Positions 1-28,206 of a stretch of DNA of 38,932 bases are shown one piece after another. The translations under genes and the position numbers were made by a program. Position 1 is the first letter of the stretch. Each line of letters opens with the position of its first letter. Source of the DNA: a virus (lineage: Duplodnaviria; Caudoviricetes); IMG/VR virus record IMGVR_UViG_3300020430_000035, positions 1 to 38,932 of that record; one strand, given 5' to 3'. Below the pieces are notes generated by a model that saw nothing but the letters and a program-made list of their open reading frames with translations, was not told the origin of the DNA and did not search any database.

Positions 1-276
1 TTGAGTGCGTGGGTTTACTTTGTGCAAAGTAGAAGTCACAAGAACGAAAAACTATACAAGCGATATGGTGGACATGAAGACACTTATAACATATCTACCG
101 TATCAGACCATCGTAAATGGTGTGAATATTTACAAGACGATATCTATTGTCCTAATTGTGATGGTGTTCTTACCTACAATAACAATGGAGTTTATCATTG
201 TGATGGTTGTATGGATACTATTGCAGACACTTACTATGAAGAAGATATTAGGGGCTTTAACAATCCCCTATTTTAA
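1..276 (+). CDS. hypothetical Zn-ribbon protein (possibly 5'-truncated)
   Basis: ORF from the window edge; CPNC...CDGC Cys pairs. Confidence 0.6.
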   Translation: MSAWVYFVQSRSHKNEKLYKRYGGHEDTYNISTVSDHRKWCEYLQDDIYCPNCDGVLTYNNNGVYHCDGCMDTIADTYYEEDIRGFNNPLF

Positions 277-285
277 TTTTAATTA

Positions 286-301
286 AAACACTAAAACTAT
301 G
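286..301 (+). repeat. 16-bp direct repeat copy 1, translation-initiation leader AAACACTAAAACTATG
   Basis: Identical to 495-510; ends in the ATG of ORF 299. Confidence 0.9.
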
Positions 302-496
302 ACAATTAGAAAACTTATTCAAGAACTTAAAAAAATTAAGGATAAAGATTCACAAATAAGAATTGCATTACCTTATTATATTGACAAACAAATTGATTAT
401 GAAAATTTGTGGTTAACAAATAAAATAGACATCCATGAGAAAGGTACAGATGGTTACGAAGAACATGGAGAGATAGATATTTATACAACAACTTAA
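299..496 (+). CDS. hypothetical early protein
   Basis: 65-aa ORF, MTIRKLIQELKK N-terminus common in small phage proteins, A-rich leader. Confidence 0.75.
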   Translation: MTIRKLIQELKKIKDKDSQIRIALPYYIDKQIDYENLWLTNKIDIHEKGTDGYEEHGEIDIYTTT

Positions 497-510
497 ACAC
501 TAAAACTATG
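495..510 (+). repeat. 16-bp direct repeat copy 2, translation-initiation leader
   Basis: Identical to 286-301; ends in the ATG of ORF 508. Confidence 0.9.
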
Positions 511-741
511 CAGAAAACAATTACGTTTCCGAGTGAACAAAAATGTAGCACAAAGAAACAATTTAGTAAATACCTAAACTTTTATAAAGATGAAAGTTTT
601 GATGTAACGGACACACCGAGATTACCTTACAAAAAAGAAAAATCGGTTTCGATTAGTGGAGACGTACAAGCCTTTATTAATCTATTACAAATGGATGATG
701 TTCAAAAAGCTAAAATAGTAAAGGAGGTAAGTAATGGATAA
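508..741 (+). CDS. hypothetical early protein
   Basis: 77-aa ORF packed in an operon. Confidence 0.7.
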   Translation: MQKTITFPSEQKCSTKKQFSKYLNFYKDESFDVTDTPRLPYKKEKSVSISGDVQAFINLLQMDDVQKAKIVKEVSNG

Positions 742-1081
742 CTACAAAAAACTTTTTGAATATAATAAAAATCTTCTTGACATAATAGAGATGCAAAATC
801 CTAGAGCAGTACAAGAGGCTCTTGATTATCATGCTGAAGAAAAAAAAGAAAATGTTCAAGACGAATTATTAAAGGAATGGGACGGCTCTTTAGTAAAAAC
901 TAAGGATGGCATGATATGTAAAGTTACTTACATAGATGTATTAGATGGTGCTTATGATTATAATTCCGATACTGTAGATGATGAATCTGTAGAATGTGAA
1001 TGTGAAGAGGATGACAATGTAACATTTTCACTAAAGTATGCTAAAGAAAATTTAGTAAGAAAGGGGGAAAGTGATGAGTGA
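734..1081 (+). CDS. acidic hypothetical protein
   Basis: D/E-rich ORF; AAGGAGGT at 721-728 upstream. Confidence 0.75.
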   Translation: MDNYKKLFEYNKNLLDIIEMQNPRAVQEALDYHAEEKKENVQDELLKEWDGSLVKTKDGMICKVTYIDVLDGAYDYNSDTVDDESVECECEEDDNVTFSLKYAKENLVRKGESDE

Positions 1082-1304
1082 TAAATTTAACACAGTACCT
1101 AATTCTGATTTCATGGAAGTAGTAGATGAAATAACCTCACAGTTAGTATATGAGAGTTTTGGAGAAGATGCTTATGATGTTCCTCAAGATGACGATGATA
1201 TCAATAAGTTAACAGAAGACGCACAAGATTTTTATAATACTAGATATGATGAGATTGAATCTTTACTTATAAGGTTTTTAAAACTTAAAATAACAGACAA
1301 ATGA
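1071..1304 (+). CDS. acidic hypothetical protein (start 1071 or 1074)
   Basis: D/E-rich ORF; AAGGGGGA at 1061-1068. Confidence 0.75.
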   Translation: MMSDKFNTVPNSDFMEVVDEITSQLVYESFGEDAYDVPQDDDDINKLTEDAQDFYNTRYDEIESLLIRFLKLKITDK

Positions 1305-1459
1305 AAAAGTTACACGAATTAAATTATGATGAGTTAAAAGAGTTGTTAGATGCTAAAAAACAACAACAACTAGCAATAGGGTTTGGAACTAAAGATATTT
1401 GGTATATGCAAATGATAGAGGAAGAACTAAATAAAAGAGAGGGGGTTGATTATGAGTAA
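1301..1459 (+). CDS. hypothetical protein, 52 aa, absent from the ORF track (MKKLHELNYDELKELLDAKKQQQLAIGFGTKDIWYMQMIEEELNKREGVDYE)
   Basis: Hand translation; ATGA overlap with the previous stop; fills the operon gap exactly. Confidence 0.75.
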   Translation: MKKLHELNYDELKELLDAKKQQQLAIGFGTKDIWYMQMIEEELNKREGVDYE

Positions 1460-1646
1460 GGACATTACAGAATACCTAGATGATTATTGCTATGAAGTTT
1501 ATGGACACAAAGATTGGTTTTTTATAGATACAGAGCCTAAGTGGGTTATTGATAAACTTATAAAAAGTGGTACAATAGAATTACATAATCATAATATAGC
1601 AATATACATTAAAGATAGAAAGGGGGTTAGATATGGTAATAACTGA
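1452..1646 (+). CDS. hypothetical protein
   Basis: ATG at 1452 follows GAGGGGG (1439-1445); the track start 1446 is a TTG alternative. Confidence 0.7.
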   Translation: MSKDITEYLDDYCYEVYGHKDWFFIDTEPKWVIDKLIKSGTIELHNHNIAIYIKDRKGVRYGNN

Positions 1647-1869
1647 TAAAGAGTGGAAAGCTAAAAAGTTTTTAGAAAAAAAAGGGTGGCAAACTTTTAA
1701 TCTTTGGCACGTTGAGGATGTACTTGAAAGGTTTAATTGTTCTAAAGATACAGCTATGGAAATACTAATAGAATCTATGGAAAGCGAATCAACTATGGAA
1801 GTTATACATGATAATATTTCTATAATAGCAGGAGAAGTTCATAGGCTTAAAGAAAAAACACATGAGTAA
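1633..1869 (+). CDS. hypothetical protein
   Basis: AAGGGGG at 1620-1626 upstream; WHVEDV motif. Confidence 0.75.
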   Translation: MVITDKEWKAKKFLEKKGWQTFNLWHVEDVLERFNCSKDTAMEILIESMESESTMEVIHDNISIIAGEVHRLKEKTHE

Positions 1870-2071
1870 AATTAAAATAAAAAAGTTAAAAGAAACTTAC
1901 AAAGACTACGTTCTATTAGATGAAGTTGTAGAGTTTTCTATTGAAGAAGATGACAACAAATACTTGTGGGAGGGATATTGTGATGAAATAGATGTAGATT
2001 GTAAAGAAGCTGATGAAATAGTGTTGTTGGTTGTGGGCTTTAAAAGTAATAAGTTGAAACTAAACGATTAA
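1862..2071 (+). CDS. acidic hypothetical protein
   Basis: Operon-packed ORF. Confidence 0.7.
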   Translation: MSKIKIKKLKETYKDYVLLDEVVEFSIEEDDNKYLWEGYCDEIDVDCKEADEIVLLVVGFKSNKLKLND

Positions 2072-2073
2072 TT

Positions 2074-2277
2074 ATGAAATACACACAAATAAATGATGTA
2101 GATAAGTATGGTTCTAATATCCTTAGACAATTTAAAATTAATTACAGAACTAGGATGTCACAACATGAGTATCATCCCGTTCTTTGTAAACATTCTATTA
2201 AGGTAATGAAAAAAGAACTTAAAGATTGTTTGGACTTTTTAGAGGTAGAAAAAAAATCAAAATTGTTTGTTGAATAG
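2074..2277 (+). CDS. hypothetical protein
   Basis: Last ORF before a strong terminator. Confidence 0.7.
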   Translation: MKYTQINDVDKYGSNILRQFKINYRTRMSQHEYHPVLCKHSIKVMKKELKDCLDFLEVEKKSKLFVE

Positions 2278-2299
2278 CAAACATTGTTTTATGTGTTTC

Positions 2300-2327
2300 G
2301 GGGGGACTTTTGTCCCCCCTTTTTTTT
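2300..2327 (+). terminator. intrinsic terminator
   Basis: GGGGGGAC-TTTT-GTCCCCCC perfect 8-bp stem followed by T8. Confidence 0.9.
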
Positions 2328-2347
2328 AATGACCATACGACAGTATT

Positions 2348-2373
2348 ACAAACAATTATATCTAATTGTTTGT
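2348..2373. repeat. 11-bp perfect inverted repeat upstream of the recombinase (operator or recombination-site candidate)
   Basis: ACAAACAATTA-tatc-TAATTGTTTGT. Confidence 0.7.
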
Positions 2374-2444
2374 TATTGTAATTATTTATAAGTAAATTGT
2401 TAATCTATTTGAATTATTATTAATTTATATTAAACAAGCAATTT

Positions 2445-2479
2445 TGAGAGTGAAGTTTTCTTTGCTCTCATTTTTGTTT
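2445..2479 (+). terminator. terminator-like hairpin immediately before the recombinase start
   Basis: TGAGAGTGAAG...CTTTGCTCTCA stem with G-U pairs, then TTTTTGTTT. Confidence 0.5.
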
Positions 2480-2483
2480 ACAT

Positions 2484-3626
2484 ATGAAAAACACACTTAG
2501 CAACCTTTCGTTAAAAAACAAATACACTTTAAGTGATGCTATACAAAACTTTGTTACACAGAAATATCACGTAACAAAAGGAACACAAAGAGCAGACATT
2601 ACAATAAAGTCTTATAAAACAATATCTAACATACTTTTAAAAACAATTCAAAAACATAAAGTAGATTATGATTTGTTACAATTAAATCTAAATAAATATT
2701 TAGACGACCCAATCAAATCAAATGAAATCAAAAACAAATACAAAAAAATATCTGAGGTAATAAAAAGCGAATCACAACACTTATCACACAACACTTTACA
2801 AAAAAGATTAAACATCTTAAAATATAGTTTGTACTCAGCTGAAAAAGATATGACAATAAAAACTTATGTAGTGCCGTTTGATATGAAATCCAAATCAACA
2901 AAGCGTCAAGTGATGAGTGCGTCAGCTTTCAAGACTACAATTAAAAATGCGTTTTTAGTATTGCGTCAGCAGGAAGGTGAAAAAATAAGAAGGAAGCAAT
3001 GTCCTGCTTCAGGAAAATTTATCAAATCACCTGAACAAATAAGTCAGGCAGGAGATGTAAAAATGATGAAGCGAGGAGCGTTTGCTTTTCTTTTAGTGGC
3101 ATTTACGAGTGCAAGAATTAAAGATGTTATGTCTTGGAGGTTTACTAAAAACATTAGTATTAACAAACATCATTATATTCTTTCTTACAAACCCAACAAA
3201 ACAAAACATACTGTTATTGATATACCCTTGCCACTACAACTAAACGGATACATAAATCATTTGATACGTAACAATGACCATCCGATGAAAGATTATTTTT
3301 TAGATAATCTATCTTATACACATTTGTTAAAGTGCTTTAGGTGTTTTATTAAATCAATCCCCGAACTAAATCAAAATGTTTCTGTACATAAAGACCTATC
3401 AAATGGGGAAGTGATTACTAAACAAAAAAAACTATATGAAATACTTACCTTTCATAATATACGTGCTACATTTATTACGCAAATGGTTGAGAAAGGCATA
3501 GACCTAGAAACTATTATGAACTTTAGTGGACACACTAACATACAAACACTTTCACAGAAGTATACAAACATAAGCGATGAACACAAAGGCAAAATGTATC
3601 AAAAATTTATGTCTGAAATCTTATAG
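2484..3626 (+). CDS. tyrosine recombinase / phage integrase
   Basis: Catalytic set visible: SARIKD (R), PNKT (K), HNIR (HxxR), SGHTN (H), QKY (Y). Confidence 0.9.
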   Translation: MKNTLSNLSLKNKYTLSDAIQNFVTQKYHVTKGTQRADITIKSYKTISNILLKTIQKHKVDYDLLQLNLNKYLDDPIKSNEIKNKYKKISEVIKSESQHLSHNTLQKRLNILKYSLYSAEKDMTIKTYVVPFDMKSKSTKRQVMSASAFKTTIKNAFLVLRQQEGEKIRRKQCPASGKFIKSPEQISQAGDVKMMKRGAFAFLLVAFTSARIKDVMSWRFTKNISINKHHYILSYKPNKTKHTVIDIPLPLQLNGYINHLIRNNDHPMKDYFLDNLSYTHLLKCFRCFIKSIPELNQNVSVHKDLSNGEVITKQKKLYEILTFHNIRATFITQMVEKGIDLETIMNFSGHTNIQTLSQKYTNISDEHKGKMYQKFMSEIL

Positions 3627-3695
3627 CTTATTTTAAATAATTAATTTCTAATGCAATAAATTTGTTTTTATTATAATAAATGTTTTTATTTGAGC

Positions 3696-3974
3696 ATGGA
3701 TAAAGAAGTGATGGATTTTTTAAATAAAACAATACATAACGCCTTTATTCAACACAGTAAAAAAACAAACCACAAAAGAGAAAACCTTGAATCTTTATTA
3801 CTGCTGAAACAACTTTTATCTTGTATCAGCAACTACAAAGATTTTTGTAACATAACAATAATGCAAAACAATATTAATGTCTCTTTTATTGATAAAGAAC
3901 ATCAAGTTATTAACACAACGTTCAATATTAATAAAGAAGATATTAGTAAAAATGCAGATAAATCAAACAATTAG
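3696..3974 (+). CDS. hypothetical protein
   Basis: ORF; ATG 3696 preferred over TTG 3690. Confidence 0.55.
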   Translation: MDKEVMDFLNKTIHNAFIQHSKKTNHKRENLESLLLLKQLLSCISNYKDFCNITIMQNNINVSFIDKEHQVINTTFNINKEDISKNADKSNN

Positions 3975-4227
3975 AATTCATAATTGGAATATCAATCTTG
4001 AGTTTGATATTGTAACTGATAAAAATGTTATGTGTAAGTTTTCAGATATTAAAAAATATATATCTGATAAACGACCAGACTTGATAAAGAAATACTTAAT
4101 CAAGTCAAAACTAAAGAAGAATGTAGATATAGAAAGAATTATAGCTTGGGATTCTTTAGTGACAGAATTAATTGAATGCAACTTATTAAAACATATTATA
4201 AATGAAATTCGAGACAGTAAATATTAA
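3952..4227 (+). CDS. hypothetical protein
   Basis: ATG 3952 with an A-rich leader minimises overlap (track start 3877). Confidence 0.55.
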   Translation: MQINQTIRIHNWNINLEFDIVTDKNVMCKFSDIKKYISDKRPDLIKKYLIKSKLKKNVDIERIIAWDSLVTELIECNLLKHIINEIRDSKY

Positions 4228-4609
4228 AGGAACGCCATACGTGATGGCAAAAGAAAGAATTAAGTATTTCAGAACCACTCCTATTTTTAAAGGTTGGTCT
4301 TTGAAAACAGAAATGATTTATCATACAGATGAAAAGGTAATATTTAAAACAGAGGCTTACGACACTAAAGGAACTTTAAGAGCAACGGGTCATGCCTTTG
4401 AATTAAAAGGCTCATCTTTTATAAACAAGACGAGCTATATAGAAAATTGTGAGACATCTTCAGTATCAAGATGTTTAGCTTTATTAAACATAGGCATTGA
4501 TGAAAGCGTTGCATCTTACGAAGAAGTAGCGAATGCAAAACTAAATCAGAATGGTCAAGCGAAACAAACGAACCCACTCCAAACAATCTCTCAAAACACT
4601 GTATCTTGA
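4202..4609 (+). CDS. putative single-strand annealing protein (Rad52/Sak-like)
   Basis: IKG.PYV..KERIKYFR and GHAFE..SSFINKTSYIENCETS.V.R.L..L.IGID motifs; lies next to the YqaJ exonuclease. Confidence 0.6.
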   Translation: MKFETVNIKGTPYVMAKERIKYFRTTPIFKGWSLKTEMIYHTDEKVIFKTEAYDTKGTLRATGHAFELKGSSFINKTSYIENCETSSVSRCLALLNIGIDESVASYEEVANAKLNQNGQAKQTNPLQTISQNTVS

Positions 4610-4859
4610 AATTTGGAATGAAAGACAACATAATTGTACGGTTTGTAAAAAGTATCTTTGGAATGAGCCAAAAGCACAGTTCTTCGCACACATATTATCC
4701 AAAGGAGCGTATCCAAGCTACAAATTCAAGAAAGAAAACATCACTATTCTTTGTTACGATTGCCATTATCGTTTTGACTTTGGGAGCAGTAAGGATGACA
4801 AAAGATTTAAATGGTTACACAAAGAAAAAGAGAGGCTCAAAAGAAAATATTACGAATGA
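4551..4859 (+). CDS. HNH endonuclease (NinG-like)
   Basis: CTVC...AHI...ENITILCYDCH. Confidence 0.8.
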   Translation: MVKRNKRTHSKQSLKTLYLEIWNERQHNCTVCKKYLWNEPKAQFFAHILSKGAYPSYKFKKENITILCYDCHYRFDFGSSKDDKRFKWLHKEKERLKRKYYE

Positions 4860-5911
4860 AGAAGTACGAGATTGACAATTATACACTTTACCCTTACTCA
4901 CATTTGTCTTATGAGGAATGGTTAGAGATAAGGAGTAGTTTTGGTTTAGCGTTAGGGGGTAGTGATATTAGCGTAGTAATGGGGGTTAATAAATATTCTA
5001 CCCTAGCTGAACTCTTTGACCAAAAACTTGGACTATCCAATCCCCCAAACTTACAGGGAAACAAATCTGTTTTTTGGGGCAACGCATTAGAAGATGTTGT
5101 TCTTGAAAAATCACAATACCTTGATATAGACCATAAAGATTCTTATTTAGATAATTCAGCACACGAAAGAAAGATGCGAAATCATGTCCCTTTTAATTAT
5201 ACTATACAAAATGACAACTTACATTGGTTATTTGCAAACGTAGACGGTTTATGGGTTGATGACAATGAAAAAACAATAGAGTCTAATTTAAAAAAAGGTA
5301 AACTACCTAACCCTAAAGCAATTATAGAAATCAAAACCATGAATAGAAATGTGTTTGATATGTGGGAAAACGGTATGCCAATAGGATACCTGTATCAGGT
5401 TCTTAGTTACCTGACACAGTATACCTTTATGAATGAAGAGATAGAAGGATACATTTTTTCTTTGGTAGCAGGTATAGAATTACATGGTTACAGAATTAGA
5501 TATGACGATGAAGTCATAAATGAAATGTTAGAGCGTTCAAGAGAGTTTTATGAGCTGTTACTTATGGGTCAAGACATAATACAAAACTCTTCAAATCCAG
5601 AACAAATGGAGCTTGGGTTACACGACATTAGACCAGAAGCTGATGGCTCACTAAGATATCAAGAATATATGAACAAAAAATATTTAGAGAGATTAGACAT
5701 CTCCAATATAGCAGAGGGAGACGATGCTATACAAGAAATTGCTGAAAAGTATGCAGAGCAAAATGCTTTCATAAAAGAAGCAAATAAACACAAACGACTA
5801 TATGGGAATCAAATTAGAGAAACTCTAGCTAAGATGAACGTAGGTCAAATTAATCTTCCGAAAGGGGGATATGTTAAATACAATAACAAATTAATTATAA
5901 AAGTTAAATAA
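4856..5911 (+). CDS. YqaJ / lambda-exonuclease family recombination nuclease
   Basis: EWL..R...LGGSD....GVNKY, WG..LE, ANVDG, IEIKT, Y..QV..Y; ATGA overlap at 4856. Confidence 0.88.
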   Translation: MKKYEIDNYTLYPYSHLSYEEWLEIRSSFGLALGGSDISVVMGVNKYSTLAELFDQKLGLSNPPNLQGNKSVFWGNALEDVVLEKSQYLDIDHKDSYLDNSAHERKMRNHVPFNYTIQNDNLHWLFANVDGLWVDDNEKTIESNLKKGKLPNPKAIIEIKTMNRNVFDMWENGMPIGYLYQVLSYLTQYTFMNEEIEGYIFSLVAGIELHGYRIRYDDEVINEMLERSREFYELLLMGQDIIQNSSNPEQMELGLHDIRPEADGSLRYQEYMNKKYLERLDISNIAEGDDAIQEIAEKYAEQNAFIKEANKHKRLYGNQIRETLAKMNVGQINLPKGGYVKYNNKLIIKVK

Positions 5912-5912
5912 C

Positions 5913-6083
5913 ATGGAAAAATTAATTTACAAACATGATGAACTTTGTGAATCTTTAGGACTTTCTAAATACCAACTTGGTCAATATAGAAAAGACGGTA
6001 AGATTCAAGCCATTGAAAATAGACGACCACTTATGTTTAAAAAAGATGAAGTTGAACGCTTTATAAGAGAAGAATTGTCGTGA
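5913..6083 (+). CDS. excisionase-like (MerR/HTH_17) DNA-binding protein, 56 aa, absent from the ORF track
   Basis: MEKLIYKHDELCESLGLSKYQLGQYRKDGKIQAIENRRPLMFKKDEVERFIREELS has the winged-HTH Xis pattern; GTGA overlap with the next gene. Confidence 0.75.
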   Translation: MEKLIYKHDELCESLGLSKYQLGQYRKDGKIQAIENRRPLMFKKDEVERFIREELS

Positions 6084-6475
6084 AAATTTTAGATGAACTA
6101 TACGAAGATAAAAATAAATTTACTCCTAGCTTAAATCTAAGAGATTTTGGTAAGGAGGAAGTAGAGACGTGGAATTCTATTGTCAATGCAATACGATTTA
6201 ATTTTGTATTGAAACCAACAGTAGATGATAAGTTTTTAGCAAAAAAATCAATAGAAGGAATTAAAACCCTTCCTCATTTGGTGATTATGTTTTTGTGTAA
6301 AACTCATGATGTTTCAGATAGATTGATGATTATTAACATGAATCTTACTGAAAAAAAATACAACGAATTTGAAAAAAGATTACAGTCTGGTATTCATAAA
6401 AATGAACCAAACCTATTAAGAAAAATACGATTATGTCAAAGATATCTGATAGAAGCAAAAAGAAAACGCAGATAA
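6080..6475 (+). CDS. hypothetical protein
   Basis: GTG start coupled to the previous stop. Confidence 0.7.
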   Translation: MKILDELYEDKNKFTPSLNLRDFGKEEVETWNSIVNAIRFNFVLKPTVDDKFLAKKSIEGIKTLPHLVIMFLCKTHDVSDRLMIINMNLTEKKYNEFEKRLQSGIHKNEPNLLRKIRLCQRYLIEAKRKRR

Positions 6476-6792
6476 AGAGCCACGAAAGAGGAGCAAGAGT
6501 AAAATTTGTAGATGATATTGTGGTAATTAAGAATAGAAAAACTGTAAAGTTTGTTGTAGATATATTTGAGAAGGATTTCAACTATATACCATATATGTTA
6601 GAAATGTATTGTTACGAAAGTGAAGTCATAAATGACGCTGTTACTATGAAAAAGAATGACTACATAATTGTGAGGTACAAAACTAAATCAAAAAAAAATA
6701 AAAAGACGGGACTGTTTTACACAACAAATACTTGTGTCAAAATTACACCCGCAACAGAAGAAATAATTTTAAATTTTAATAAACACTTATGA
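6433..6792 (+). CDS. putative OB-fold protein (DUF3127/SSB-like)
   Basis: Beta-strand pattern KFVV...LE...ND.I.V.Y..KSK...G.FYT; replication-module context. Confidence 0.45.
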   Translation: MSKISDRSKKKTQIKSHERGARVKFVDDIVVIKNRKTVKFVVDIFEKDFNYIPYMLEMYCYESEVINDAVTMKKNDYIIVRYKTKSKKNKKTGLFYTTNTCVKITPATEEIILNFNKHL

Positions 6793-7136
6793 ATTATAAT
6801 AACAACTCAGGAAATCAAACTCAAGGAGTAGATTTCAAGAATATGATTAACCATTACGTAGGAAATGGACAACAGAAAAACCCTAACTATGATATCGTAG
6901 GATTTAGACTTTATCTAGATAATGTCAATCAAGACGTTAGGCAAGATGAAAAAGGTAGAAACTACGTTGATTTAAATGTGGGTAGAAAAAAAGCAGTAGA
7001 CCAATTTGGATGGACACACAGTGTGTGGGTCAAAAGAATGGGTCAAGCTCAACAGCAACAACCAATACAACAACAACAACCAACGCAATCACAAGGAGGC
7101 ACTCAGCAATACAATAATGAGAACGTTCCGTTTTGA
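6789..7136 (+). CDS. putative single-stranded DNA-binding protein
   Basis: Compact core, Q-rich linker and an SSB-type C-terminal tip (ENVPF); upstream of the primase-helicase. Confidence 0.7.
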   Translation: MNYNNNSGNQTQGVDFKNMINHYVGNGQQKNPNYDIVGFRLYLDNVNQDVRQDEKGRNYVDLNVGRKKAVDQFGWTHSVWVKRMGQAQQQQPIQQQQPTQSQGGTQQYNNENVPF

Positions 7137-7140
7137 TGCA

Positions 7141-7222
7141 ATACTTACAGTATTATATATATTCTATACTTATAAAGTATAGAATATATAATACTTAAAG
7201 TATAAAGTAATACTTATAGTAT
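7141..7222. promoter_or_regulatory. palindromic AT-rich element, candidate replication origin
   Basis: Four ATACT-N3-5-AGTAT units nested in a ~47-bp near-perfect inverted repeat (7149-7195). Confidence 0.55.
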
Positions 7223-7250
7223 AATTAAAAAATAAATAAAAAAATTAAAT

Positions 7251-8900
7251 ATGCAACTAAATTGGGAAGAGATTTCAAAACAGTTACCAACCACTCCAAA
7301 ACAACAAGTCAAACTAAGGTGTCCCGTATGCGATGGTATACGTAGTGACAAAAAAGATAGGTCTCTTTCTGTTAATGTTAAAGATAAAGTATGGAATTGT
7401 TTTTACTGTGGGGAAAACGGATACGATACTAACGATGTAAAAAAAAAAGATATTCCAACATTTGTTATGATTAAATCTCACGCAGACAACTTATCAAAAG
7501 AAACATTGAAATGGTTTAAGGACAGAGGCATTTCTTCTGATACAATAAACCAGTTTAAGATACAAGAAAAAAATAATGAAATACATTTCAATTATTACGA
7601 AGATGATATTTTAGTTAATATCAAATACAGAAGCACTAAAGAAAAAAAGTTTAGACTTTATCCTAACGCAAAACTTATAGCTTACAATATAGATTCTGTT
7701 AATGAAGACACAGAAACATTAGTGATTACAGAAGGAGAGATTGATGCACTTACCGTTTATGAAGCAGACAGTTCTCTTGCAGTCATCTCTGTGCCTAATG
7801 GTGCTAACGGTCTTGATTGGGTTGATGCATCTTATGATAAAATTAAGAATGTAGATAGATATATTCTTGCTTTAGATGGAGACTCTAAAGGTCAAGAGTA
7901 TCAAAAAGAACTATCAAGAAGACTTGGTAGACATAAATGCTCTTATTTAAGCTATCCTAAAGGCACGAAAGATATAAATGAGGTAATGGTATCACACGGT
8001 ATAGATAGTGTCTTAGAATGCATCTCCAATCCCGTAGACTATCCTATCGTTGGTATCTATGAGAAGTCAGACTGGAAAAATAATCTCTGGGATATTTTTG
8101 TTAACGGGTATGACAAGGGAGATACTGTGGGTCTTGGACACTTTGATAACCTTTTATCTTTTTCTACAGGACAGATGACAGTTATATCAGGAGTACCTAG
8201 TTCAGGAAAATCAGAATTTTTAGACCAGATTGTTTTAAATCTGGCAATGAAAAAAGATGTAAATAAAAAGGAATGGAAGTTTGGTGTGATATCTTTTGAG
8301 AATCCTGTTCACCTACACATATCAAAACTTGTCAAGAAATACCTTCACAAACCTTTTGATAAGCAGTACATACACGAAGAGGAAATAGTTGACGCAGTAA
8401 ACTTCATTGATTCTAAGTTTAAATTTTTCAATGTATCAGAAGCAGACATGACAATAGAAGGTATTCTAGATACCTCGAAGGAATTAGTAGCAAGATATGG
8501 TATCACATCACTTGTGATAGACCCATACAACTACATAGAAAGTAAAATGGAAAAAGGACAAAGCGAAACTAATTACATATCTGATGTTCTTACGCAAGTA
8601 TTAAACTTTGCTAAAGAATATTCAGTTCATGTATTCTTTGTTGCTCATCCAACTAAAATACAAAAAGACGAAACAACAGGTAACTTCAAACTACCTTCTT
8701 TATATAGCATTAGCGGTTCTGCTAATTGGTATAATAAAACCGATAACGGTATAATAGTTTGGAGAAACTTTCAGACAGACGAAATTGAAGTTCATGTGCA
8801 AAAGGTAAGGTTTGCTTGGAATGGAAAGGTAGGATTAGCTAGGTTTAAATATAACAAAGAGACTGGCGAGTTTAAGGCTGACTACTTAAATCCATGCTAG
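7251..8900 (+). CDS. bifunctional DNA primase-helicase (T7 gp4/Twinkle type)
   Basis: Zn finger CPVC..CFYC, TOPRIM ITEGEIDAL and DGD, Walker A GVPSSGKS, VIDPYN, VAHP, SGSA.W.NK.D. Confidence 0.93.
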   Translation: MQLNWEEISKQLPTTPKQQVKLRCPVCDGIRSDKKDRSLSVNVKDKVWNCFYCGENGYDTNDVKKKDIPTFVMIKSHADNLSKETLKWFKDRGISSDTINQFKIQEKNNEIHFNYYEDDILVNIKYRSTKEKKFRLYPNAKLIAYNIDSVNEDTETLVITEGEIDALTVYEADSSLAVISVPNGANGLDWVDASYDKIKNVDRYILALDGDSKGQEYQKELSRRLGRHKCSYLSYPKGTKDINEVMVSHGIDSVLECISNPVDYPIVGIYEKSDWKNNLWDIFVNGYDKGDTVGLGHFDNLLSFSTGQMTVISGVPSSGKSEFLDQIVLNLAMKKDVNKKEWKFGVISFENPVHLHISKLVKKYLHKPFDKQYIHEEEIVDAVNFIDSKFKFFNVSEADMTIEGILDTSKELVARYGITSLVIDPYNYIESKMEKGQSETNYISDVLTQVLNFAKEYSVHVFFVAHPTKIQKDETTGNFKLPSLYSISGSANWYNKTDNGIIVWRNFQTDEIEVHVQKVRFAWNGKVGLARFKYNKETGEFKADYLNPC

Positions 8901-9244
8901 AGTATATAGTTTTAGAATGGGAAGGACATATATCATTGAATCAATGGTATTCCTCAAAACATTGGAGCTATAGAAAAAAGCAGAAAGACCATTGGCATGA
9001 GATTTTCAAAACCAAACTACAAGATTACGATAAAACCCTTTTTGACAGATACAAATTTAAATTGTATTATAACTCAAGATTAGACCCATCTAATACAATA
9101 ACGATGGTCAAACTATTAGAGGATACAATGAAAAAAGAGGGTTGGATTATTGATGACTCTCCTAAATATTGTGCCGAAATAAGATTGAAGTTCGACTCAG
9201 AGCTACCAAAAAAATCTTATAGAGCAGTAATTGAAAAATTATAA
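8894..9244 (+). CDS. RusA-like Holliday junction resolvase
   Basis: SLN, RLDPSN, K..ED.M, I.DDS motifs. Confidence 0.75.
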   Translation: MLEYIVLEWEGHISLNQWYSSKHWSYRKKQKDHWHEIFKTKLQDYDKTLFDRYKFKLYYNSRLDPSNTITMVKLLEDTMKKEGWIIDDSPKYCAEIRLKFDSELPKKSYRAVIEKL

Positions 9245-9656
9245 TGTAGTTGGAAAGCAGGCTGAATACTTTGTAGTATCTAGTATGATTGGAGAAGGGT
9301 TTGAGGTCTTTAACTCAATGACCAATAACTCAAGGGTTGATTATGTTGCTTTAGACACAGAGACCAACAAACTTTATAAAATTCAAGTAAAGACAACTAT
9401 TGAAATGAAAGATGGTTGCTTGCAATATACGATTAAAAAAAGCTCTAAGAACTATTCATACATATATAAAAAAGGAGACTTTGATATTTATGCTTTTGTT
9501 TACCTACCCACTAATGAAATAATGTATAAGTGGTTTGATGATGTGTACTGTACAAACTCAATACACTTCAGGGTAACTCTACCTAAAAACAATCAGGTAA
9601 GAAACATAAACTTATGGTGTCCTAATACATTAAAGAGTTTGACTAATGAAGTTTAA
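9231..9656 (+). CDS. PD-(D/E)XK endonuclease (group I intron-associated type)
   Basis: GKQAE, RVDYV, KIQVKT, Y...DFDIYAFV. Confidence 0.75.
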   Translation: MKNYNVVGKQAEYFVVSSMIGEGFEVFNSMTNNSRVDYVALDTETNKLYKIQVKTTIEMKDGCLQYTIKKSSKNYSYIYKKGDFDIYAFVYLPTNEIMYKWFDDVYCTNSIHFRVTLPKNNQVRNINLWCPNTLKSLTNEV

Positions 9657-10035
9657 TAGTGACTTTAAATATGATTTAATATTAGGGAATCAAGGAGAAA
9701 ACATTATATCAGAACTTTTAAAAGATTCTACCATAGAAGTTAAGATGGATTTTTTAGCTCACAGAACTAATAATTTATTTATAGAATATCTAAGCAGGGA
9801 AAAACCAAGTGGTATATCAACCACGCAAGCAGAGTTTTGGTTTTATATAATACTTAAAAAAAATACACCTAGAGACCCAAAAAAAATTACAATTAAAAAC
9901 GTTCAGGACATAAGATTTTTTAAAGTAAATAAATTAAAAAAAATATGTAGAGAATGGTTAAGTTATAACAAACCTATAAAAGGAGGAGATAACAACACAT
10001 CGCTTGGCTGTTGCATACCATTAAGTTTATTATGA
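9646..10035 (+). CDS. phage PD-(D/E)XK-like nuclease
   Basis: F..DL..G..GE, IEVK.D, TNNLFIEY, PSGI.TT.A..W. Confidence 0.65.
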   Translation: MKFNSDFKYDLILGNQGENIISELLKDSTIEVKMDFLAHRTNNLFIEYLSREKPSGISTTQAEFWFYIILKKNTPRDPKKITIKNVQDIRFFKVNKLKKICREWLSYNKPIKGGDNNTSLGCCIPLSLL

Positions 10036-10283
10036 GTTTTTTTTCACAAAAAATGTTAAAGAAAGATTTCAATGAAATCATGTCTCACGAAAACACAATC
10101 GCTTATGTTTATTTTAAAAAAAACACTTTAGAGCTTATAAATAAAACATCTGGAATTAATCACATCTGGGTAGACGGAAGTGAGAAAATTATTATGTCTC
10201 ATGAGACATCACTTAAATTTCAAAAATTTTACGAAGAGTATAGAAAAAAGAAACCAATACAGTCCTATTATACAAAAAAGTAA
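10032..10283 (+). CDS. hypothetical protein
   Basis: ATGA overlap at 10032. Confidence 0.6.
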   Translation: MSFFSQKMLKKDFNEIMSHENTIAYVYFKKNTLELINKTSGINHIWVDGSEKIIMSHETSLKFQKFYEEYRKKKPIQSYYTKK

Positions 10284-10291
10284 TATATTTG
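10284..10291 (+). promoter_or_regulatory. Bacteroidota-type -7 promoter element TATATTTG
   Basis: Matches TAnnTTTG; no + ORF lies between it and the terminator. Confidence 0.5.
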
Positions 10292-10294
10292 CAA

Positions 10295-10364
10295 CTGAAA
10301 CTTTGTACATAAACCTGTTCATTGTTTTAGTGTTTGGACAGTCTCTGCGGAGACTGTTTTTTTT
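10295..10364 (+). ncRNA. candidate small RNA antisense to early-gene start leaders
   Basis: Promoter word, then ~45 nt including CATTGTTTTAGTGTTT (15/16 complementary to 286-301 and 495-510), then a terminator; the 5' end is approximate. Confidence 0.45.
10336..10364 (+). terminator. intrinsic terminator at the convergence point
   Basis: ACAGTCTC-TGCG-GAGACTGT stem and T-tract. Confidence 0.85.
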
Positions 10365-10599
10365 AGTATTCTCCTTCTGATTCTGACTTGCACATCATAT
10401 AAACCATGCTAATGCATCCTAATGCTTGCTCCATTTTTTCTGCCATGAATGGTGAAACTTCTTTTTTGTTCTCCATGTATGGTGCAAGCATTTCCATCTT
10501 CTTAGATAGTTGATTGAAGTCATCAATAAATGCCTTAGCACTTGGTTGAGTCTTTTCCATTAACTCAACAAAGGCTTTCTTTTGATATTCTTTCATCAT
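10363..10599 (-). CDS. hypothetical protein
   Basis: Last ORF of the late arm. Confidence 0.7.
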   Translation of the reverse strand: MMKEYQKKAFVELMEKTQPSAKAFIDDFNQLSKKMEMLAPYMENKKEVSPFMAEKMEQALGCISMVYMMCKSESEGEY

Positions 10600-10679
10600 T
10601 TCTTTTTCTTTTTTTTATAAGTTTTTTTAGCTTTTTTTTTGCTACTACTTTTTTTTCCGTATGATTTTTTTCCGTACAT
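10596..10679 (-). CDS. 27-aa lysine-rich microprotein MYGKKSYGKKSSSKKKAKKTYKKKKKK
   Basis: Hand translation; ATGA coupling to the next gene. Confidence 0.6.
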   Translation of the reverse strand: MYGKKSYGKKSSSKKKAKKTYKKKKKK

Positions 10680-10688
10680 AACTATAAT

Positions 10689-10832
10689 TTAACTACCACA
10701 ACTTAAACATTCTTCATCATCTATAGAGCACGATTCAGTGTTCTCTACAAATGGGGTTCTGTTGTCTATATCTAATATAATACAATCACACGATTCTTTA
10801 TTGTCTTCGCAGGTGCATGGTATGTTTTTCAT
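10689..10832 (-). CDS. 47-aa Cys-rich acidic microprotein ending CSIDDEECLSCGS
   Basis: Hand translation; ATGA coupling to the upstream gene. Confidence 0.7.
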   Translation of the reverse strand: MKNIPCTCEDNKESCDCIILDIDNRTPFVENTESCSIDDEECLSCGS

Positions 10833-10960
10833 CTTCCTTGTCCTTTATATTTTTTTACATAGTTTCTAGAGAGCTTGTGATTACTCGTATTGTTTTTTGA
10901 GTGAACACCCTTTCTTTTTATCTTCTTCTTTTTCTTATACTCAAATAGTATCCTTCTCAC
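10829..10960 (-). CDS. 43-aa basic microprotein (…KRKGVHSK…YVKKYKGQGR)
   Basis: Hand translation; GTGA and ATGA overlaps on both sides. Confidence 0.7.
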   Translation of the reverse strand: MRRILFEYKKKKKIKRKGVHSKNNTSNHKLSRNYVKKYKGQGR

Positions 10961-11139
10961 TTTACCTCTATAGAATCAATAATCTTTTCGATTTTTTTAA
11001 AAACTTTCATCTCTAATAATAACCTATCTGGTACGTTTGAATCATCTAAAGTTTGGACTACCGATAATAACTCAGAAATAAGATTTGTCTTATCTTCTAT
11101 ACTTAAATCTTCTTTTTCTTGTATTTCTTTTGTAATCAT
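10957..11139 (-). CDS. hypothetical protein
   Basis: Coupled ORF. Confidence 0.65.
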   Translation of the reverse strand: MITKEIQEKEDLSIEDKTNLISELLSVVQTLDDSNVPDRLLLEMKVFKKIEKIIDSIEVK

Positions 11140-11351
11140 TTTTTAACCTTTTCAAATGTGCTTATACCAAAACAACCCAGAGTAACCCAGACAAAAGAAT
11201 TATATACTACTTCATTAATAATTAAATCTTTATCAGCTATCAGGCTTGTCATTAAATCAGCTACAGCAAATAATACCATAACTATAAATGAAATAAATCC
11301 TACTACATTTTTTTCATTAATATCATTCTCGTCTTTAAATAATGCCCACAT
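11136..11351 (-). CDS. two-TM membrane protein, holin-like
   Basis: Two hydrophobic segments and a basic C-terminus; in the lysis cluster. Confidence 0.65.
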   Translation of the reverse strand: MWALFKDENDINEKNVVGFISFIVMVLFAVADLMTSLIADKDLIINEVVYNSFVWVTLGCFGISTFEKVKK

Positions 11352-11356
11352 AATTA

Positions 11357-11764
11357 TTATTTATTAATTATTCTTTTTCCTTTTTCGTATGAGCGACCCC
11401 CAAAAAATGCTCCTACGGTTGTTATTAGAGTTAATTGTAATAAATCCACCCATTTTTCTTCTACTTTAAATTTTATAGAGCCACTGTCTATAAATACAAG
11501 AAGAACTGTACTTACTATTAAAAATATTAACACTAAAGGTCTTACACTTCTTGTCAACCAGTTTCCATGTTCTAAATCTGCTTTCCAACGTTCTGTAACG
11601 TTCTTTTGCATTTCAGCTTCTGCATTTATAAAGATAGTTTCCATCTCCTTTTGAAACTTTCTTTTCTCATCACCAGTTGTGATAAATTTATCTGCAACAC
11701 CAGCAAGTTTTTCAACAACACCACCAGCAGCGTTGCCAAATATTTTACCTAAAATCTTACTCAC
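11357..11764 (-). CDS. holin (GTA 3TM-like family)
   Basis: RW.AD....WL..SVRP, AFFGGRS.EK motifs. Confidence 0.8.
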   Translation of the reverse strand: MSKILGKIFGNAAGGVVEKLAGVADKFITTGDEKRKFQKEMETIFINAEAEMQKNVTERWKADLEHGNWLTRSVRPLVLIFLIVSTVLLVFIDSGSIKFKVEEKWVDLLQLTLITTVGAFFGGRSYEKGKRIINK

Positions 11765-11877
11765 TTTTTATTATTTTTCTTTCTAAGAAGCATAAAATCC
11801 ATTTTATCAATTCTACCATTCTTATTCAAGTCTATTTTCCTCTGATTTGCTGTAAGTTTTCTTTTTACTTTTTTCAT
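11761..11877 (-). CDS. 38-aa basic microprotein with an EF-hand-like loop (DLNKNGRIDKMDF)
   Basis: Hand translation; GTGA coupling to the holin. Confidence 0.7.
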   Translation of the reverse strand: MKKVKRKLTANQRKIDLNKNGRIDKMDFMLLRKKNNKK

Positions 11878-11881
11878 AATT

Positions 11882-12058
11882 TTATCTTCCTGCTTTTCGC
11901 ATAGCTATTTTATGTGAATTACCAAACGTTGCACCTTTTTTCATAGCGTTTACCATAACTCTTATATGCTTTACAGTATGATGCTTTGCGTGTCTTTTCA
12001 AAGCACCTTGCTGTCTTTTATTAAGTGCGTCTATATTAATACCTTTAACCTTAGCCAT
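11882..12058 (-). CDS. 58-aa basic His-rich protein
   Basis: Start MAKVKG at 12058 preferred over the track start 12139, which lies inside the endolysin. Confidence 0.7.
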   Translation of the reverse strand: MAKVKGINIDALNKRQQGALKRHAKHHTVKHIRVMVNAMKKGATFGNSHKIAMRKAGR

Positions 12059-12515
12059 AAACTTTATACCTTGTTTTGCCATTGTCTTTATAAGCCTGCA
12101 AAACTCTGTTTCTATTTTTTTCTTCTGAGTAACTAACATGAACCCAAGCTGGATTCATTGCATCACCAAACTCATAGATAAGTTGGTCAAACTCTAAGTT
12201 CATCATTATATAATCAAATATATCTCTGTTACTTACCTTACTGTTTCTGTTGTCTTGGTCTATATCTAAGGCTTGTCCGTGACAATGCTGAGATGTTTTA
12301 CTTCCTCCTATTGCTTTGTTAAGAGATTCACTTCTATATCCACTAGATATATATATAGGTACTCCGAAGTGTTCTCTTATTGGTTGGAATATCTTCTCTG
12401 CTATTAACTTAAGGTTTTTTGTGTGTTCTTCTGTAGGACTATTATCAATCCCCAGCCTAGAGGCTGTGTTAGATTTTATACACTCTTCTAATTTTAAATT
12501 TTCTGATAAACGCAT
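12051..12515 (-). CDS. endolysin, peptidase M15A family
   Basis: SSGYRS..LN..IGGS..SQH..G.A.D and WVHVS Zn-peptidase motifs. Confidence 0.9.
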   Translation of the reverse strand: MRLSENLKLEECIKSNTASRLGIDNSPTEEHTKNLKLIAEKIFQPIREHFGVPIYISSGYRSESLNKAIGGSKTSQHCHGQALDIDQDNRNSKVSNRDIFDYIMMNLEFDQLIYEFGDAMNPAWVHVSYSEEKNRNRVLQAYKDNGKTRYKVYG

Positions 12516-12565
12516 ATGTAAAATTACTTAGAGGTAGTGCGTTTTATCTCTCGGAGAGGGTAAGA
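12516..12565 (-). promoter_or_regulatory. candidate late promoter, copy A
   Basis: TCTTACCC..GAGATAA-N17-TAATTTTACAT; shared with 26712-26761. Confidence 0.5.
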
Positions 12566-12568
12566 GTA

Positions 12569-15500
12569 TTATTGTTCAAGTGGTTCTAATATACTTGTAG
12601 CTTCGTAAGACCTTACTTCTTCTATTTCATCTTTAAATTCATCAAATAAAACAATATTTCTTTTTGCTATGTCAACTACATTAGGAACACCCATTAGTTT
12701 AAAATCTTCTAAGATTTCAAATTTTTCTTTTTTATCAAGCTTTCCAAAATATTTAAAAAATATAGCACTTCTTGCAAATGCGTTGTCTTCATATTTAATT
12801 CTTAATCCTATTTCTATGTTGTCAGGATTTTTAATTTTTGTTGACTTGTAGTTATATTTATAAAACTCAAGAGCCTGTTTCTTTTGTTTTTCAGTAAAAT
12901 TCTGACCATCTATTACTTGTCTAAATTTTTTCTCTGAATCATCTATATCAGGATTTTTTTGAATTAGTATTTTTAATTTTTGCCTAAAATCACCATCTCT
13001 ATAATTAGCTTTTTCTATTAATTCATTTAAACTCTCATCACCAAAGTCTATAATCGGAACTGTTGATATTACTTTTTGTGTTCCAAACAATGACTCAAAA
13101 GGATTTAAAACATTTTTGTCAGCGTATTTAGATTTATAAGCAAATGATACATCTGAACCATCTACATCTCTTATCATATTATTAATGTGCTCTCCCATAA
13201 TATATGCAGAACCTATTAAAAAATGATTTCTGTCTGAGGTTAAAACACTTTCAGTAAAATGTTTCATTTTAGGAGCAGAATCTACACCTGTGGATTTTAT
13301 AATTTCAGCTGGAGCAGATTCTGACTTTTCAAGAACTTCTGCAAAAGTTTTATAAAAAGAGGGTATGTCTTTTCTGTCTATACCCCTTCTGCTAGGTGAT
13401 ACATTTGCGTCAGATTGTGTTTCTATTGGTCTATCTCTAAAAACATCATAATTAGTATTTACTTCAACAAGTCCTCTTGCCACTGGCGGTAGTGGAATAC
13501 CTTGTACTGGGCTAAATCCTTTTAAAATATCACCACTAAAATTTAAAAATTGACGATACCTAGAAGTTGTAGTTGCGCTTATGTCAAAGGTAGATGGCTC
13601 AGATTTCCCTCCATTTGAGTTATATACTAAACTTTCAGCTGCGGCTATAGATGGTTGAGTTATAAAATTTGCTACCTGTGGAGCAAGTCTTATCTTCACA
13701 TATTTTCTAACTTTATGTTCTACACCGTTTTTTTCTATTGTTTCATATGCTGAATCACCCATAAACTTAGGGTATAATACTACGTAATTATTGTTTTTTA
13801 TATAATCAGGTACTTTGTTCCAGTCTTCTTTATCTTCCTCATCGTAATTTAAAAATGAATAAACATAAGCGCCAGCTAAACCTAAATTTCCATAAAACAA
13901 TTTTTTACTAAAATTTAAGGGATTATTTCTTATATAAGCTCCTGCGGTTCTGGCAGCTTGAAAAGCAACATTTGTATATGGATTTACTTGGTCAATCATT
14001 TTAATAAATGCATTACCCATGTTAAAATCTAATGCTTGTCTTGTTTTTTCTACAGCTCTAATATCAACCTCTTCTTGCGAAAGTTCTGGATTATTTTTTT
14101 TAATATTTTTTCTTGCTTGCTCAAATCCCGCTAACCTTACAGATAGTTCTGACACTTCTCCCGTAAAAGCTAATCCTCTTTTCAAGTAATTAAATAACGA
14201 TTCTTTCTTTGTTGTTAGTCGTTGGTCTGTGTCTAGAGCATCTAATCCAGTTTGACCAGCAAGCATACTCATTAATCCTCCATTTTTCATATATGACTCT
14301 AAAAGCTCATTAAATTTTTTGCTTTTAAATTTTTGAAATTTTTTATTTTCTGTTCTTTCTAGCACAATATCTTTTGCCATAGCGGAACTTCTTCCCAATA
14401 GTCTCAAACCAGCAAAATAAATATTAACATCATCATGTATGTCTGTAAAAAAGACTTGATTACTTATATCCATAGGTACATTTACAGCTGCAAATTGAGG
14501 ATTATATCCAGTAGCAAAAGCTCTTAAAATATTTGCACCCATAACAATACCTAAATTTTTAGTTATAGGATGATTTATTTCAATTTTATCCATAAATTCT
14601 GTAGCTAAATTCTCTTGAATAGCATATTTAACTACTTTACCATCTTGTTTAAAAGACATTTCGGTAAATCCATTTGGTGCAGGTTCATATTCAGTTACAA
14701 ACCTTTCTCCCTTTTTTTTAGGTTTTTTCTTTAATTGTTTAAACCAACTAAACTCTTGTCCTGTATCTGTAATTTTGTTTGTGGTTTCTTGATATAATGA
14801 CTTTGTCATTTTATTTGCGTGCATTCTTTTTATGTGTGTAGATTGTGCTAGCGCTAATAAGGTTTCAAAATCGGTATTTAAAGGAGTGTCAGCACCCATC
14901 CTGATATTATTTAATTCATTCTTATCAAAATTAAAAGATGAGTTTAAAAATTTAACATCATCACCATCTAAGAGTTTTTCTAAAAATCTTCTAGGAGAAT
15001 AAAAATCGTCTTTTAACTCTTTATAAGTATCTTCAGTTATAAGACCAGCATCATATTTTTCTTCTAGCATTTTATTAAAAACTCCACTATAATTATCGGC
15101 TCTTGCGTCTAAATCTTTGTAGTTTTTTCTACCTAATTTTTTTCTTATTTCTTTTAGTTTTTTTGAAGCGCTTTCTAAATTATAACCATCAGGGTGTTTA
15201 ATTCTTTCTAAATTTTTTGAATCTCTTTTAGAATCTAATTGTATAATTCTTTTAAGTATTATCAAATCATTTAATGCTTCTGTACCTTCTTTTTTTATTT
15301 TTTTCGGTATTGAACCAAATATTTTTTTGTTTTGTTTATATGCTACTTCGCCTCCATATGCCATCATACCAGCCATATTTGTCATATAAGCTCTTGTGTT
15401 TATAAAGTTTTCATTTGTTAATATTCTTCTTATATTAGACTGTCTGTCAAAAATAGCCTCTCCAGTTTCAATAATTTTTTTTGTTTTTTCTTTTAATGTT

Positions 15501-27811: not shown

Positions 27812-28206
27812 GCTCTTCTTACTTTTCTTGCTACGCTTTTACTATACTTAGCTCTTTGTTTACCTGCTTTACTAGCAGCTCTTTTTCTTCTGTTTGTTGC
27901 TGCTTTTTGAGAAGGGGTCAAACTTTTTCTTACACTAGCTGGTAAGTATCTACCTCTTTTTGCTCTTGGTTTTTTCTTATCTCCTTTAGATACATAATCC
28001 CATTTTTGTTTTGACCACTTTGTTAATCTGTTTTTTGAAGACTTTGCTCCTCTATATCCTCCTCCTGCTTTTTTATATCTTGCAGTTGCTAACTGAGCTT
28101 TCCTTGCTGACCACTGTCCCGCTCTTCCTCCTTTTGTGCCTCTTTTAACACTAGCTACTATTCTTTTCCAAAGAGCTGGTTTCGTTTTGGTTGCTGACTT
28201 ACTCAT
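27808..28206 (-). CDS. highly basic phage protein (DUF5872-like)
   Basis: KGG.AGQWSARKAQL....YKKAGGGY, L.KW..QKW, RYLP. Confidence 0.8.
   Translation of the reverse strand: MSKSATKTKPALWKRIVASVKRGTKGGRAGQWSARKAQLATARYKKAGGGYRGAKSSKNRLTKWSKQKWDYVSKGDKKKPRAKRGRYLPASVRKSLTPSQKAATNRRKRAASKAGKQRAKYSKSVARKVRRA

Follow-up and report, generated by a model that had tools for sequence, protein, structure and literature searches.

A candidate small-RNA gene of a probable Bacteroidota phage, predicted to pair over the start codons of the phage's own early genes

Little is known, as far as we are aware, of how early genes are shut off in phages of Bacteroidota. The mRNAs of these phages are without Shine-Dalgarno (SD) sequences. 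Phages P1 and P7 encode an antisense RNA, c4, with an antirepressor target. The closest described systems are the Bacteroides small RNAs GibS and FopS, which are reported to act as repressors by base-pairing around the start codons of SD-less mRNAs (PMC7366714, PMC11697453); the paper on the FopS family also notes one copy in a Caudovirales phage (PMC11697453). A review of phage small RNAs describes sar of P22, OOP and aQ of lambda, 24B_1, VpdS and PreS as setting the timing of development, or lysogeny, by base pairing, with sar blocking translation initiation of ant (PMC12197685); the word 'Bacteroid' is absent from this review. In the open-access literature, we found no report of a Bacteroidota-phage RNA aimed at the shared leader of the phage's own early genes.

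We analyzed a window of phage DNA (the whole stretch, 38,932 nucleotides), which is a 38.9-kb part of a ~59-kb genome encoding an integrase and is extended by G001 (58.8 kb) and G002 (56 kb), two records nearly identical to it. The + strand carries, over 1-10283, small early genes without known family, the integrase, a RecE-like nuclease, a primase-helicase and a RusA-like resolvase, and the lysis and virion genes follow on the - strand from 10363 onward. The tyrosine integrase (2484-3626, +; PHROGs and Pfam PF00589) suggests a temperate phage. Among annotated phages, the best primase matches listed are mostly to Flavobacterium phages, at ~33%, and because of these matches and the A-rich, SD-less leaders the host is likely a member of Bacteroidota. 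Late-region genes of the window encode a heavy-metal-associated domain (28199-28516), a BACON domain (30183-30767) and a methyltransferase-like domain (30764-31342). The preliminary description had recognized no repressor gene, and we likewise recognized none among the proteins scanned; most early proteins match no family, so the missing match is not evidence of absence. At 10284-10364, where the replication and late operons converge, a promoter-like word, a 16-base stretch complementary to early-gene leaders (the seed) and a terminator follow one another on the + strand. With a probability of about 0.62, we read this unit, from its sequence, as a phage small-RNA gene with its own promoter, whose ~69-nt RNA would block translation of the phage's own early genes.

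The unit opens with the TAnnTTTG word TATATTTG (10284-10291, +), the predicted -7 promoter box of the Bacteroidota primary sigma factor; in Flavobacterium psychrophilum, TAnnTTTG is reported at -12 to -5 (PMC9723704). It lies directly 3' of the stop codon of the last + gene, which is also the last gene of the replication operon (10032-10283, +; no Pfam family), and 28 bases separate it from the 16-mer. A TTG at the expected -33 position is absent upstream of the word. TAnnTTTG occurs 58 times in the window, so the word alone is weak evidence and the weight rests on its position and conservation. It stands 25-75 nt upstream of one of nine predicted terminators in G001 and one of seven in G007, a phage of a related clade. 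Among the 289 terminators predicted in loci anchored on the primase (L141-L223 and L005-L014), 12 have the word 20-75 nt upstream, and five of these 12 are the window unit or its counterpart. A scan for sigma-70 promoters returned fewer sites than shuffled sequence (53 versus a mean of 69) and was uninformative.

The predicted RNA spans 10296-10364 (+), about 69 nt, with its 5' end taken from promoter spacing and its 3' end from the terminator. Its predicted fold is more stable than expected (z = -4.0; 0/200 shuffles as stable). A weak 5' hairpin (10296-10329, +) is predicted to cover the middle of the seed and to leave the last 5-6 seed bases free. The seed itself, CATTGTTTTAGTGTTT (10320-10335, +), is the reverse complement of the early-gene leader plus AUG; it is predicted to be partly paired inside the RNA, at an opening cost of ~7 kcal/mol, and its predicted pairing with the best target reaches back to about 10315. 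The intrinsic terminator (10336-10364, +), which also ends the replication operon, consists of a 10-pair hairpin (10336-10359) followed by a T-run to 10364, and the last gene of the late operon (10363-10599, -) converges on it. The coordinates that had been given for the word, the 16-mer, the terminator and the duplicated leaders all hold. It had also been stated that no + strand ORF follows the word; a GTG-started frame of 66 codons (10180-10380) does cross the unit, but it overlaps a real gene out of frame and we take it to be a shadow ORF. Contigs from RNA libraries (three marine runs of one study, in which ends and strand are not readable) cover the last late gene to 10350 and 10393 and have zero cover over 10167-10349; since a ~70-nt RNA is usually lost from contig data, this gap says nothing either way.

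The reverse complement of the 16-mer matches each of the duplicated leaders at 286-301 and 495-510, which end in the ATG of two early genes, at 15 of 16 positions. Three matches at one mismatch or fewer (the seed and the two leaders) were reached in 0/100 dinucleotide shuffles (mean 0.02), so the match put forward in the preliminary description stands and composition does not explain its frequency. The leaders are predicted targets on the + strand: 286-301, leader and ATG of early gene 299-496, pairs at a net -9.8 kcal/mol after opening costs, and 495-510, leader and ATG of early gene 508-741, at -10.7 kcal/mol. A genome scan for the leader, as had been suggested, uncovered further leader-bearing early genes outside the window. 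In G001, genes 28512, 29053 and 30820 carry leaders of the same kind, 31775 carries a looser one, and exact copies lie at 32838 and 33005. The overlapping downstream early genes at 734, 1071, 1452 and 1633 have strong G-rich, SD-like words before their starts, in contrast to the A-rich leaders of the free-leader genes, and are possibly translationally coupled. The G001 early region also encodes a glutamine amidotransferase/gamma-glutamyl cyclotransferase (L025 7776-8816), whose gene is preceded by a TTGACA-17-TAATAG word (L025 7700-7775), and a hairpin plus the palindrome TTGCAATATTGCAA (L025 4987-5053) lies before the best target gene.

Start regions (-30 to +20) were taken from a simple ORF caller and scored against the RNA body with RNAduplex; for G001, one spurious start gave way to 32838, which bears the leader. 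When only the window is scored, its two targets come second and third of 53 starts. Among the 65 starts of G001 (11 early), the top five duplexes all fall on early genes, and the best, on 29053 (outside the window), reaches -26.1 kcal/mol with pairing that runs from the leader through the AUG to the third codon. The three best early duplexes average -23.5 kcal/mol, compared to -13.4 +/- 1.5 for shuffles (0/100 as low), and early genes are separated from the others with an AUC of 0.85, a value reached by 0/100 shuffles. Natural controls behaved differently from the RNA body: 378 genomic 42-mers gave AUC values of at most 0.61, and of nine pre-terminator stretches in G001 only the window unit and a second unit, described below, exceeded 0.61 (AUC 0.82 and 0.77). 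Net energies (RNAduplex plus the opening energies of both partners, with sub-windows limited to 24 nt) were -9.2 to -15.8 kcal/mol for the two window leaders and five G001 leaders, compared to -2.6 to +4.4 kcal/mol for four control starts; 31775 gave -5.9 kcal/mol and early gene 29724 gave no pairing. With early genes on top against dinucleotide shuffles, the pairing test proposed beforehand comes out in favor of the idea, and on these sequence data we judge it quite probable that the seed acts as RNA on the early leaders.

In the close relative L223, proteins near the unit are 64-97% identical to those of the window and the flanking genes 79-89% identical. The seed is conserved at 16/16 positions and the promoter region at 11/12, with the TAnnTTTG word kept, while the 24 bases before the seed agree at 18/24. 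The L223 terminator has three one-sided stem changes, all of which keep the pair. Among three sequences, 10 of 11 pairs of the 5' hairpin are unchanged, one is broken and none shows a two-sided change; between the window and L223 there are no two-sided compensatory changes, and the shuffle control with three sequences has no power. The L223 RNA body on G001 early starts gave -21.8 kcal/mol (0/100 shuffles) and an AUC of 0.76 (1/100), with early genes making up only two of the top five (13/100 shuffles).

These comparisons bear on whether the 16-mer instead leads a real gene on the opposite strand, a 37-codon ORF antisense to the unit (10209-10322, -; no PHROGs or Pfam family) that would encode a 37-aa membrane peptide at the end of the late operon. 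The peptide might be a type I toxin whose antitoxin is the + RNA, antisense to it in cis, and the resemblance to the early leaders would then come from a shared leader style. Type I toxin-antitoxin systems combine a small hydrophobic ORF with a cis-antisense RNA that overlaps its start, and the geometry here fits. The encoded peptide is hydrophobic, layouts of hairpin, leader and gene exist elsewhere (L044, L052), and L223 keeps the length of the ORF, its changed stop codon still being a stop. In addition, the exact word leads an ORF of at least 50 codons in 36 of the 80 IMG/VR matches examined. Hydrophobicity is, however, what the genetic code leads one to expect opposite a Lys-rich, codon-aligned frame. 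All 14 changed sense codons in L223 alter the residue (6/6 outside the overlap), unlike the neighboring genes, in which silent and altering codons number 37:16, 22:6 and 18:4. The equivalent frame has four codons in L142 and nine in L141, and 21 at the second unit. Further, the U-run faces the + strand only, and no late gene uses the early-type leader. Judged by its codon changes, the minus-strand ORF is not conserved as a protein; it is probably a shadow ORF, and a lineage-specific peptide or a type I toxin-antitoxin pair here is highly improbable.

The exact 16-mer was found in 111 stretches of IMG/VR. In only three of the 80 examined was the word followed by a terminator of at most -8 kcal/mol; one is the phage's own copy, and the other two are real genes on the opposite strand that lie behind bidirectional terminators. 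In the other 31 a terminator was present only at the phage's own copy. The promoter word combined with the seed core occurs in at least 119 stretches, with three terminators among those listed, one being the phage's own. Since terminators are rare after the exact seed elsewhere, the exact seed is not a widespread family.

A second clade, represented by L141 and L142/L143 (records G006, G007 and G008), shares 57-58% identity in primase, 76% in capsid and the gene order of the window phage. The same junction in L141 and L142/L143 consists of TATGTTTG, 45 bases and a terminator, and in both clades the TAnnTTTG word is kept 45-47 nt from the hairpin though little else aligns. The second-clade seed is different: an anti-AUG stretch lies in a small loop and a free stretch is complementary to TTAACCTAA-type leaders, which are those of the second clade's own early genes. 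For scoring in G007, we manually added start 58686 and used the G008 sequence for the truncated leader of the first gene; for the G007 and L141 bodies on own-clade starts, one duplicate start call was dropped. On the 63 G007 starts (13 early), the top three duplexes of the G007 body were all early, with best early energies of -18.1 versus -12.9 kcal/mol (0/100 shuffles) and an AUC of 0.76 (3/100); the L141 body on G007 starts gave -16.7 kcal/mol (0/100) and an AUC of 0.76 (0/100). The top predicted targets in the G007 clade include its first early genes, which encode a MoxR-type AAA ATPase and a vWA protein (L142 23-3169); G001 has its amidotransferase/cyclotransferase gene instead. Swapping seeds between genomes mostly failed: the window seed on G007 was matched by 16/100 shuffles, L223 on G007 by 74/100 and L141 on G001 by 24/100, with the G007 seed on G001 early starts being borderline (4/100). 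Net pairing in the G007 clade is weaker and split in two, at -3.7 to -6.9 kcal/mol on four own early starts, compared to -1.1 to -4.9 kcal/mol for the second-clade RNA on the early starts of the other clade. Another G007 pre-terminator stretch had lower energies on early starts than the unit itself (-22.7 kcal/mol; AUC 0.66). Early genes share no homology between the two clades, so the change is not base-for-base compensation at one site, and with only two clades the seed/leader contrast counts as one independent change. A third close clade did not turn up in searches with capsid and resolvase, nor did prophage relatives in GTDB genomes. The covariation between seed and leaders foreseen in the preliminary description is borne out in part: the seed is kept in L223 and changes together with the leaders in the 57% clade, but base-for-base compensation is not seen.

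Two further readings keep the complementarity and assign it another role. The repeated word might be bound by a protein, as DNA or as RNA, or be a relic of recombination, in which case the inverted copies by the terminators would not be RNA seeds. The gene modules next to the exact leader repeats are not the same in G001 as in the window, which indicates that the repeats take part in recombination; the genes behind them partly differ (window 286-2071 versus L025 8826-9751 in G001), suggesting module exchange at the leader tag. Yet the inverted copies in the window occur only directly before + strand terminators (2/2), and the second-clade mirror is an imperfect two-part complement reaching into the first codons, which fits RNA pairing better than a protein site. 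We regard a protein site or relic as very unlikely. The other reading is that of a captured, FopS-like regulator whose main targets are host mRNAs with similar leaders, the early genes imitating strong host leaders. The leader word is widespread in IMG/VR, a FopS sequence is reported in a Caudovirales phage (PMC11697453), and the otherwise unrelated phage G030 has FopS-shaped units. These are two units on its minus strand, near 49345 and 44184 (L291), with an anti-AUG word and a U-rich stretch before the terminator; on the strand opposite them lies a block of small genes that share AAACTAATATTATG-type leaders, and one of the two units has TAnnTTTG upstream. Host mRNAs have, in our view, only a slight chance of being the main targets, as the seed follows each phage's own early leaders, late-gene starts rank low for seed pairing, and a match to the FopS model is absent.

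The anti-start-codon RNA of the preliminary description has passed the pairing, ranking and conservation tests, and its existence as an RNA, its own 5' end and its repression stand as predictions. Beyond what was described there, the window contains a second anti-leader with one extra base (2282-2298, +) at the 3' end of the early operon, without TAnnTTTG upstream. The early-operon terminator (2300-2327, +; 8 pairs, 7 of them G-C, and T8) follows directly, and upstream of the second unit a small hairpin takes in the stop codon of gene 2074-2277 (window 2260-2327). On G001 early starts, this anti-leader gave an AUC of 0.75 (1/100 shuffles as high) and a best-three energy at 5/100, and 2260-2327 is a candidate 3'-derived feedback RNA. 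Between the early terminator and the integrase lie an inverted repeat (ACAAACAATTA and its complement, 2340-2385) and a hairpin with a T-run (2445-2470), which may mark an attP site or an operator; of the 16 positions at which the window and G001 differ in 2050-2500, most are in this interval. The G007 early-operon terminator has no anti-leader (AUC 0.37).

An analogue of the second unit, which G007 lacks, was found in the more distant phage G011 (capsid 36%), which has about a dozen CACAC-type early leaders. Its anti-leader adjoins the early-operon terminator, is complementary to these leaders without an anti-AUG, and is not preceded by TAnnTTTG. On its own 84 starts (17 early), it gave an AUC of 0.82 (0/60) and a best-three energy at 2/60, and it showed no preference for G001 early starts; the G011 early starts were hand-picked after the leaders had been seen, which makes this supporting evidence and not a blind test. 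At the thresholds used, the promoter-plus-terminator unit is absent from the distant capsid relatives G012, G020 and G022, and G011 has none at the convergence point. On the G011 minus strand near 35372-35258 (L286), an anti-leader and terminator precede a stretch that resembles a tRNA but is not called by ARAGORN, and then another, similar terminator.

Units of this kind raise the question of whether the RNA at 10284-10364 could be the stable, processed 3' end of the replication-operon mRNA, with the same seed and targets but with TATATTTG not a working promoter. The terminator closes the replication operon as well, the word is common in the window and lacks the -33 TTG, and neither the second unit (2282-2327) nor the G011 unit has TAnnTTTG. 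Against processing speak the constant spacing of word and hairpin in two clades with little else aligning, the predicted 5' helix, which begins at the inferred +1, and the effect of added upstream bases, with which the seed is predicted to become almost fully paired. A processed 3' end is unlikely in our estimate, and we favor an RNA with its own promoter.

For such an RNA we infer how it is transcribed, where its 5' end lies, and how it would pair inside the cell, repress and be timed, as follows. Host RNA polymerase with the primary sigma factor would start at the TAnnTTTG box and make the ~69-base RNA (10296-10364). The free end of the seed would nucleate on an A-rich leader and pairing would then extend over the AUG, so that roughly six early genes of the phage itself could be paired over leader and AUG by a seed of 16-20 bases. 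By analogy with GibS and FopS on SD-less mRNAs, pairing over the AUG would block 30S loading. The most likely role of the RNA would be to damp the first wave of protein synthesis, either from the time when the replication region comes to be expressed or in the lysogen: the unit closes the replication operon, which suggests that early synthesis is damped midway through infection, and the presence of an integrase allows a role in lysogeny. The second anti-leader (2282-2327), at the 3' end of the early transcript, may add feedback of the early operon on itself. Tentatively, and at less than even odds, we propose that these phages have a repressor regulon made of RNA only, in which early genes would carry a leader tag that is read by two anti-tag RNAs, one with its own promoter and one, from the 3' end of the early transcript, as a feedback timer. 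Tag and anti-tag would be rewritten together in each lineage, and swapped genes would join by recombining at the tag. If true, one short RNA set against a standard leader would provide protein-free control of a whole gene set and would account for the near-identical leaders among early genes; such regulons could be read from sequence alone, and the RNA could serve as a small programmable repressor for Flavobacteria and Bacteroides.

With the class of trans-encoded small RNAs, the unit shares a seed complementary to distant initiation regions beyond chance, and a seed that is either conserved (L223) or changes with its targets (one independent contrast). No Rfam family reached gathering level, the best being sbrA at 21 bits versus a gathering threshold of 45, over the terminator only. 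Neither FopS nor GibS had an Rfam 15 match up to E 5 (1-13000) or E 10 (10200-10450), no sequence match of the window unit to GibS was found, and the same two intervals returned no row for a c4-type RNA, with no antirepressor among the proteins scanned. The phage RNAs of Proteobacteria phages covered by the review differ from the window RNA in acting, as described there, on one or a few regulators or on host genes, several of them in cis, and none is described as mirroring a standard leader of an early-gene set 8-14 kb away, the distance between the unit and its predicted targets here (PMC12197685). GibS of B. thetaiotaomicron is closer, being trans-encoded and reported to repress by annealing across start codons and Kozak-like A-rich leaders, as the window RNA is predicted to do, but it differs in its length of 145 nt, two seeds, non-canonical promoter and host metabolic targets (PMC7366714). 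FopS of B. thetaiotaomicron is described as a short RNA with a primary-sigma promoter, a seed and a Rho-independent terminator, all predicted likewise here, and as repressing translation at the initiation region of SD-less mRNAs, again as predicted for the window RNA; one of its members is 3'UTR-derived (PMC11697453). Binding to RbpB and repression of susC-type mRNAs are further features of the FopS family. Its TAnnTTTG promoter has a counterpart here as a word that is present and positionally conserved in two clades. A terminator is present in the window unit, and the seed adjoins it and is predicted to be partly paired. FopS comprises multicopy paralogues; the window has two seed-terminator units, one with the promoter word, and G007 has one. 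The reported FopS targets are host PUL genes, whereas the window gene is phage-encoded with its own early genes as predicted targets; and the FopS seed is reported as conserved, whereas the window-type seed changes between clades (PMC11697453). Judged by the Rfam model, seed position and phage targets, the window RNA is not a FopS member. The mechanism, pairing over the start codon, is already known from GibS and FopS; what would be new is its phage origin, its self-directed targeting of multiple genes and its lineage-specific tag.
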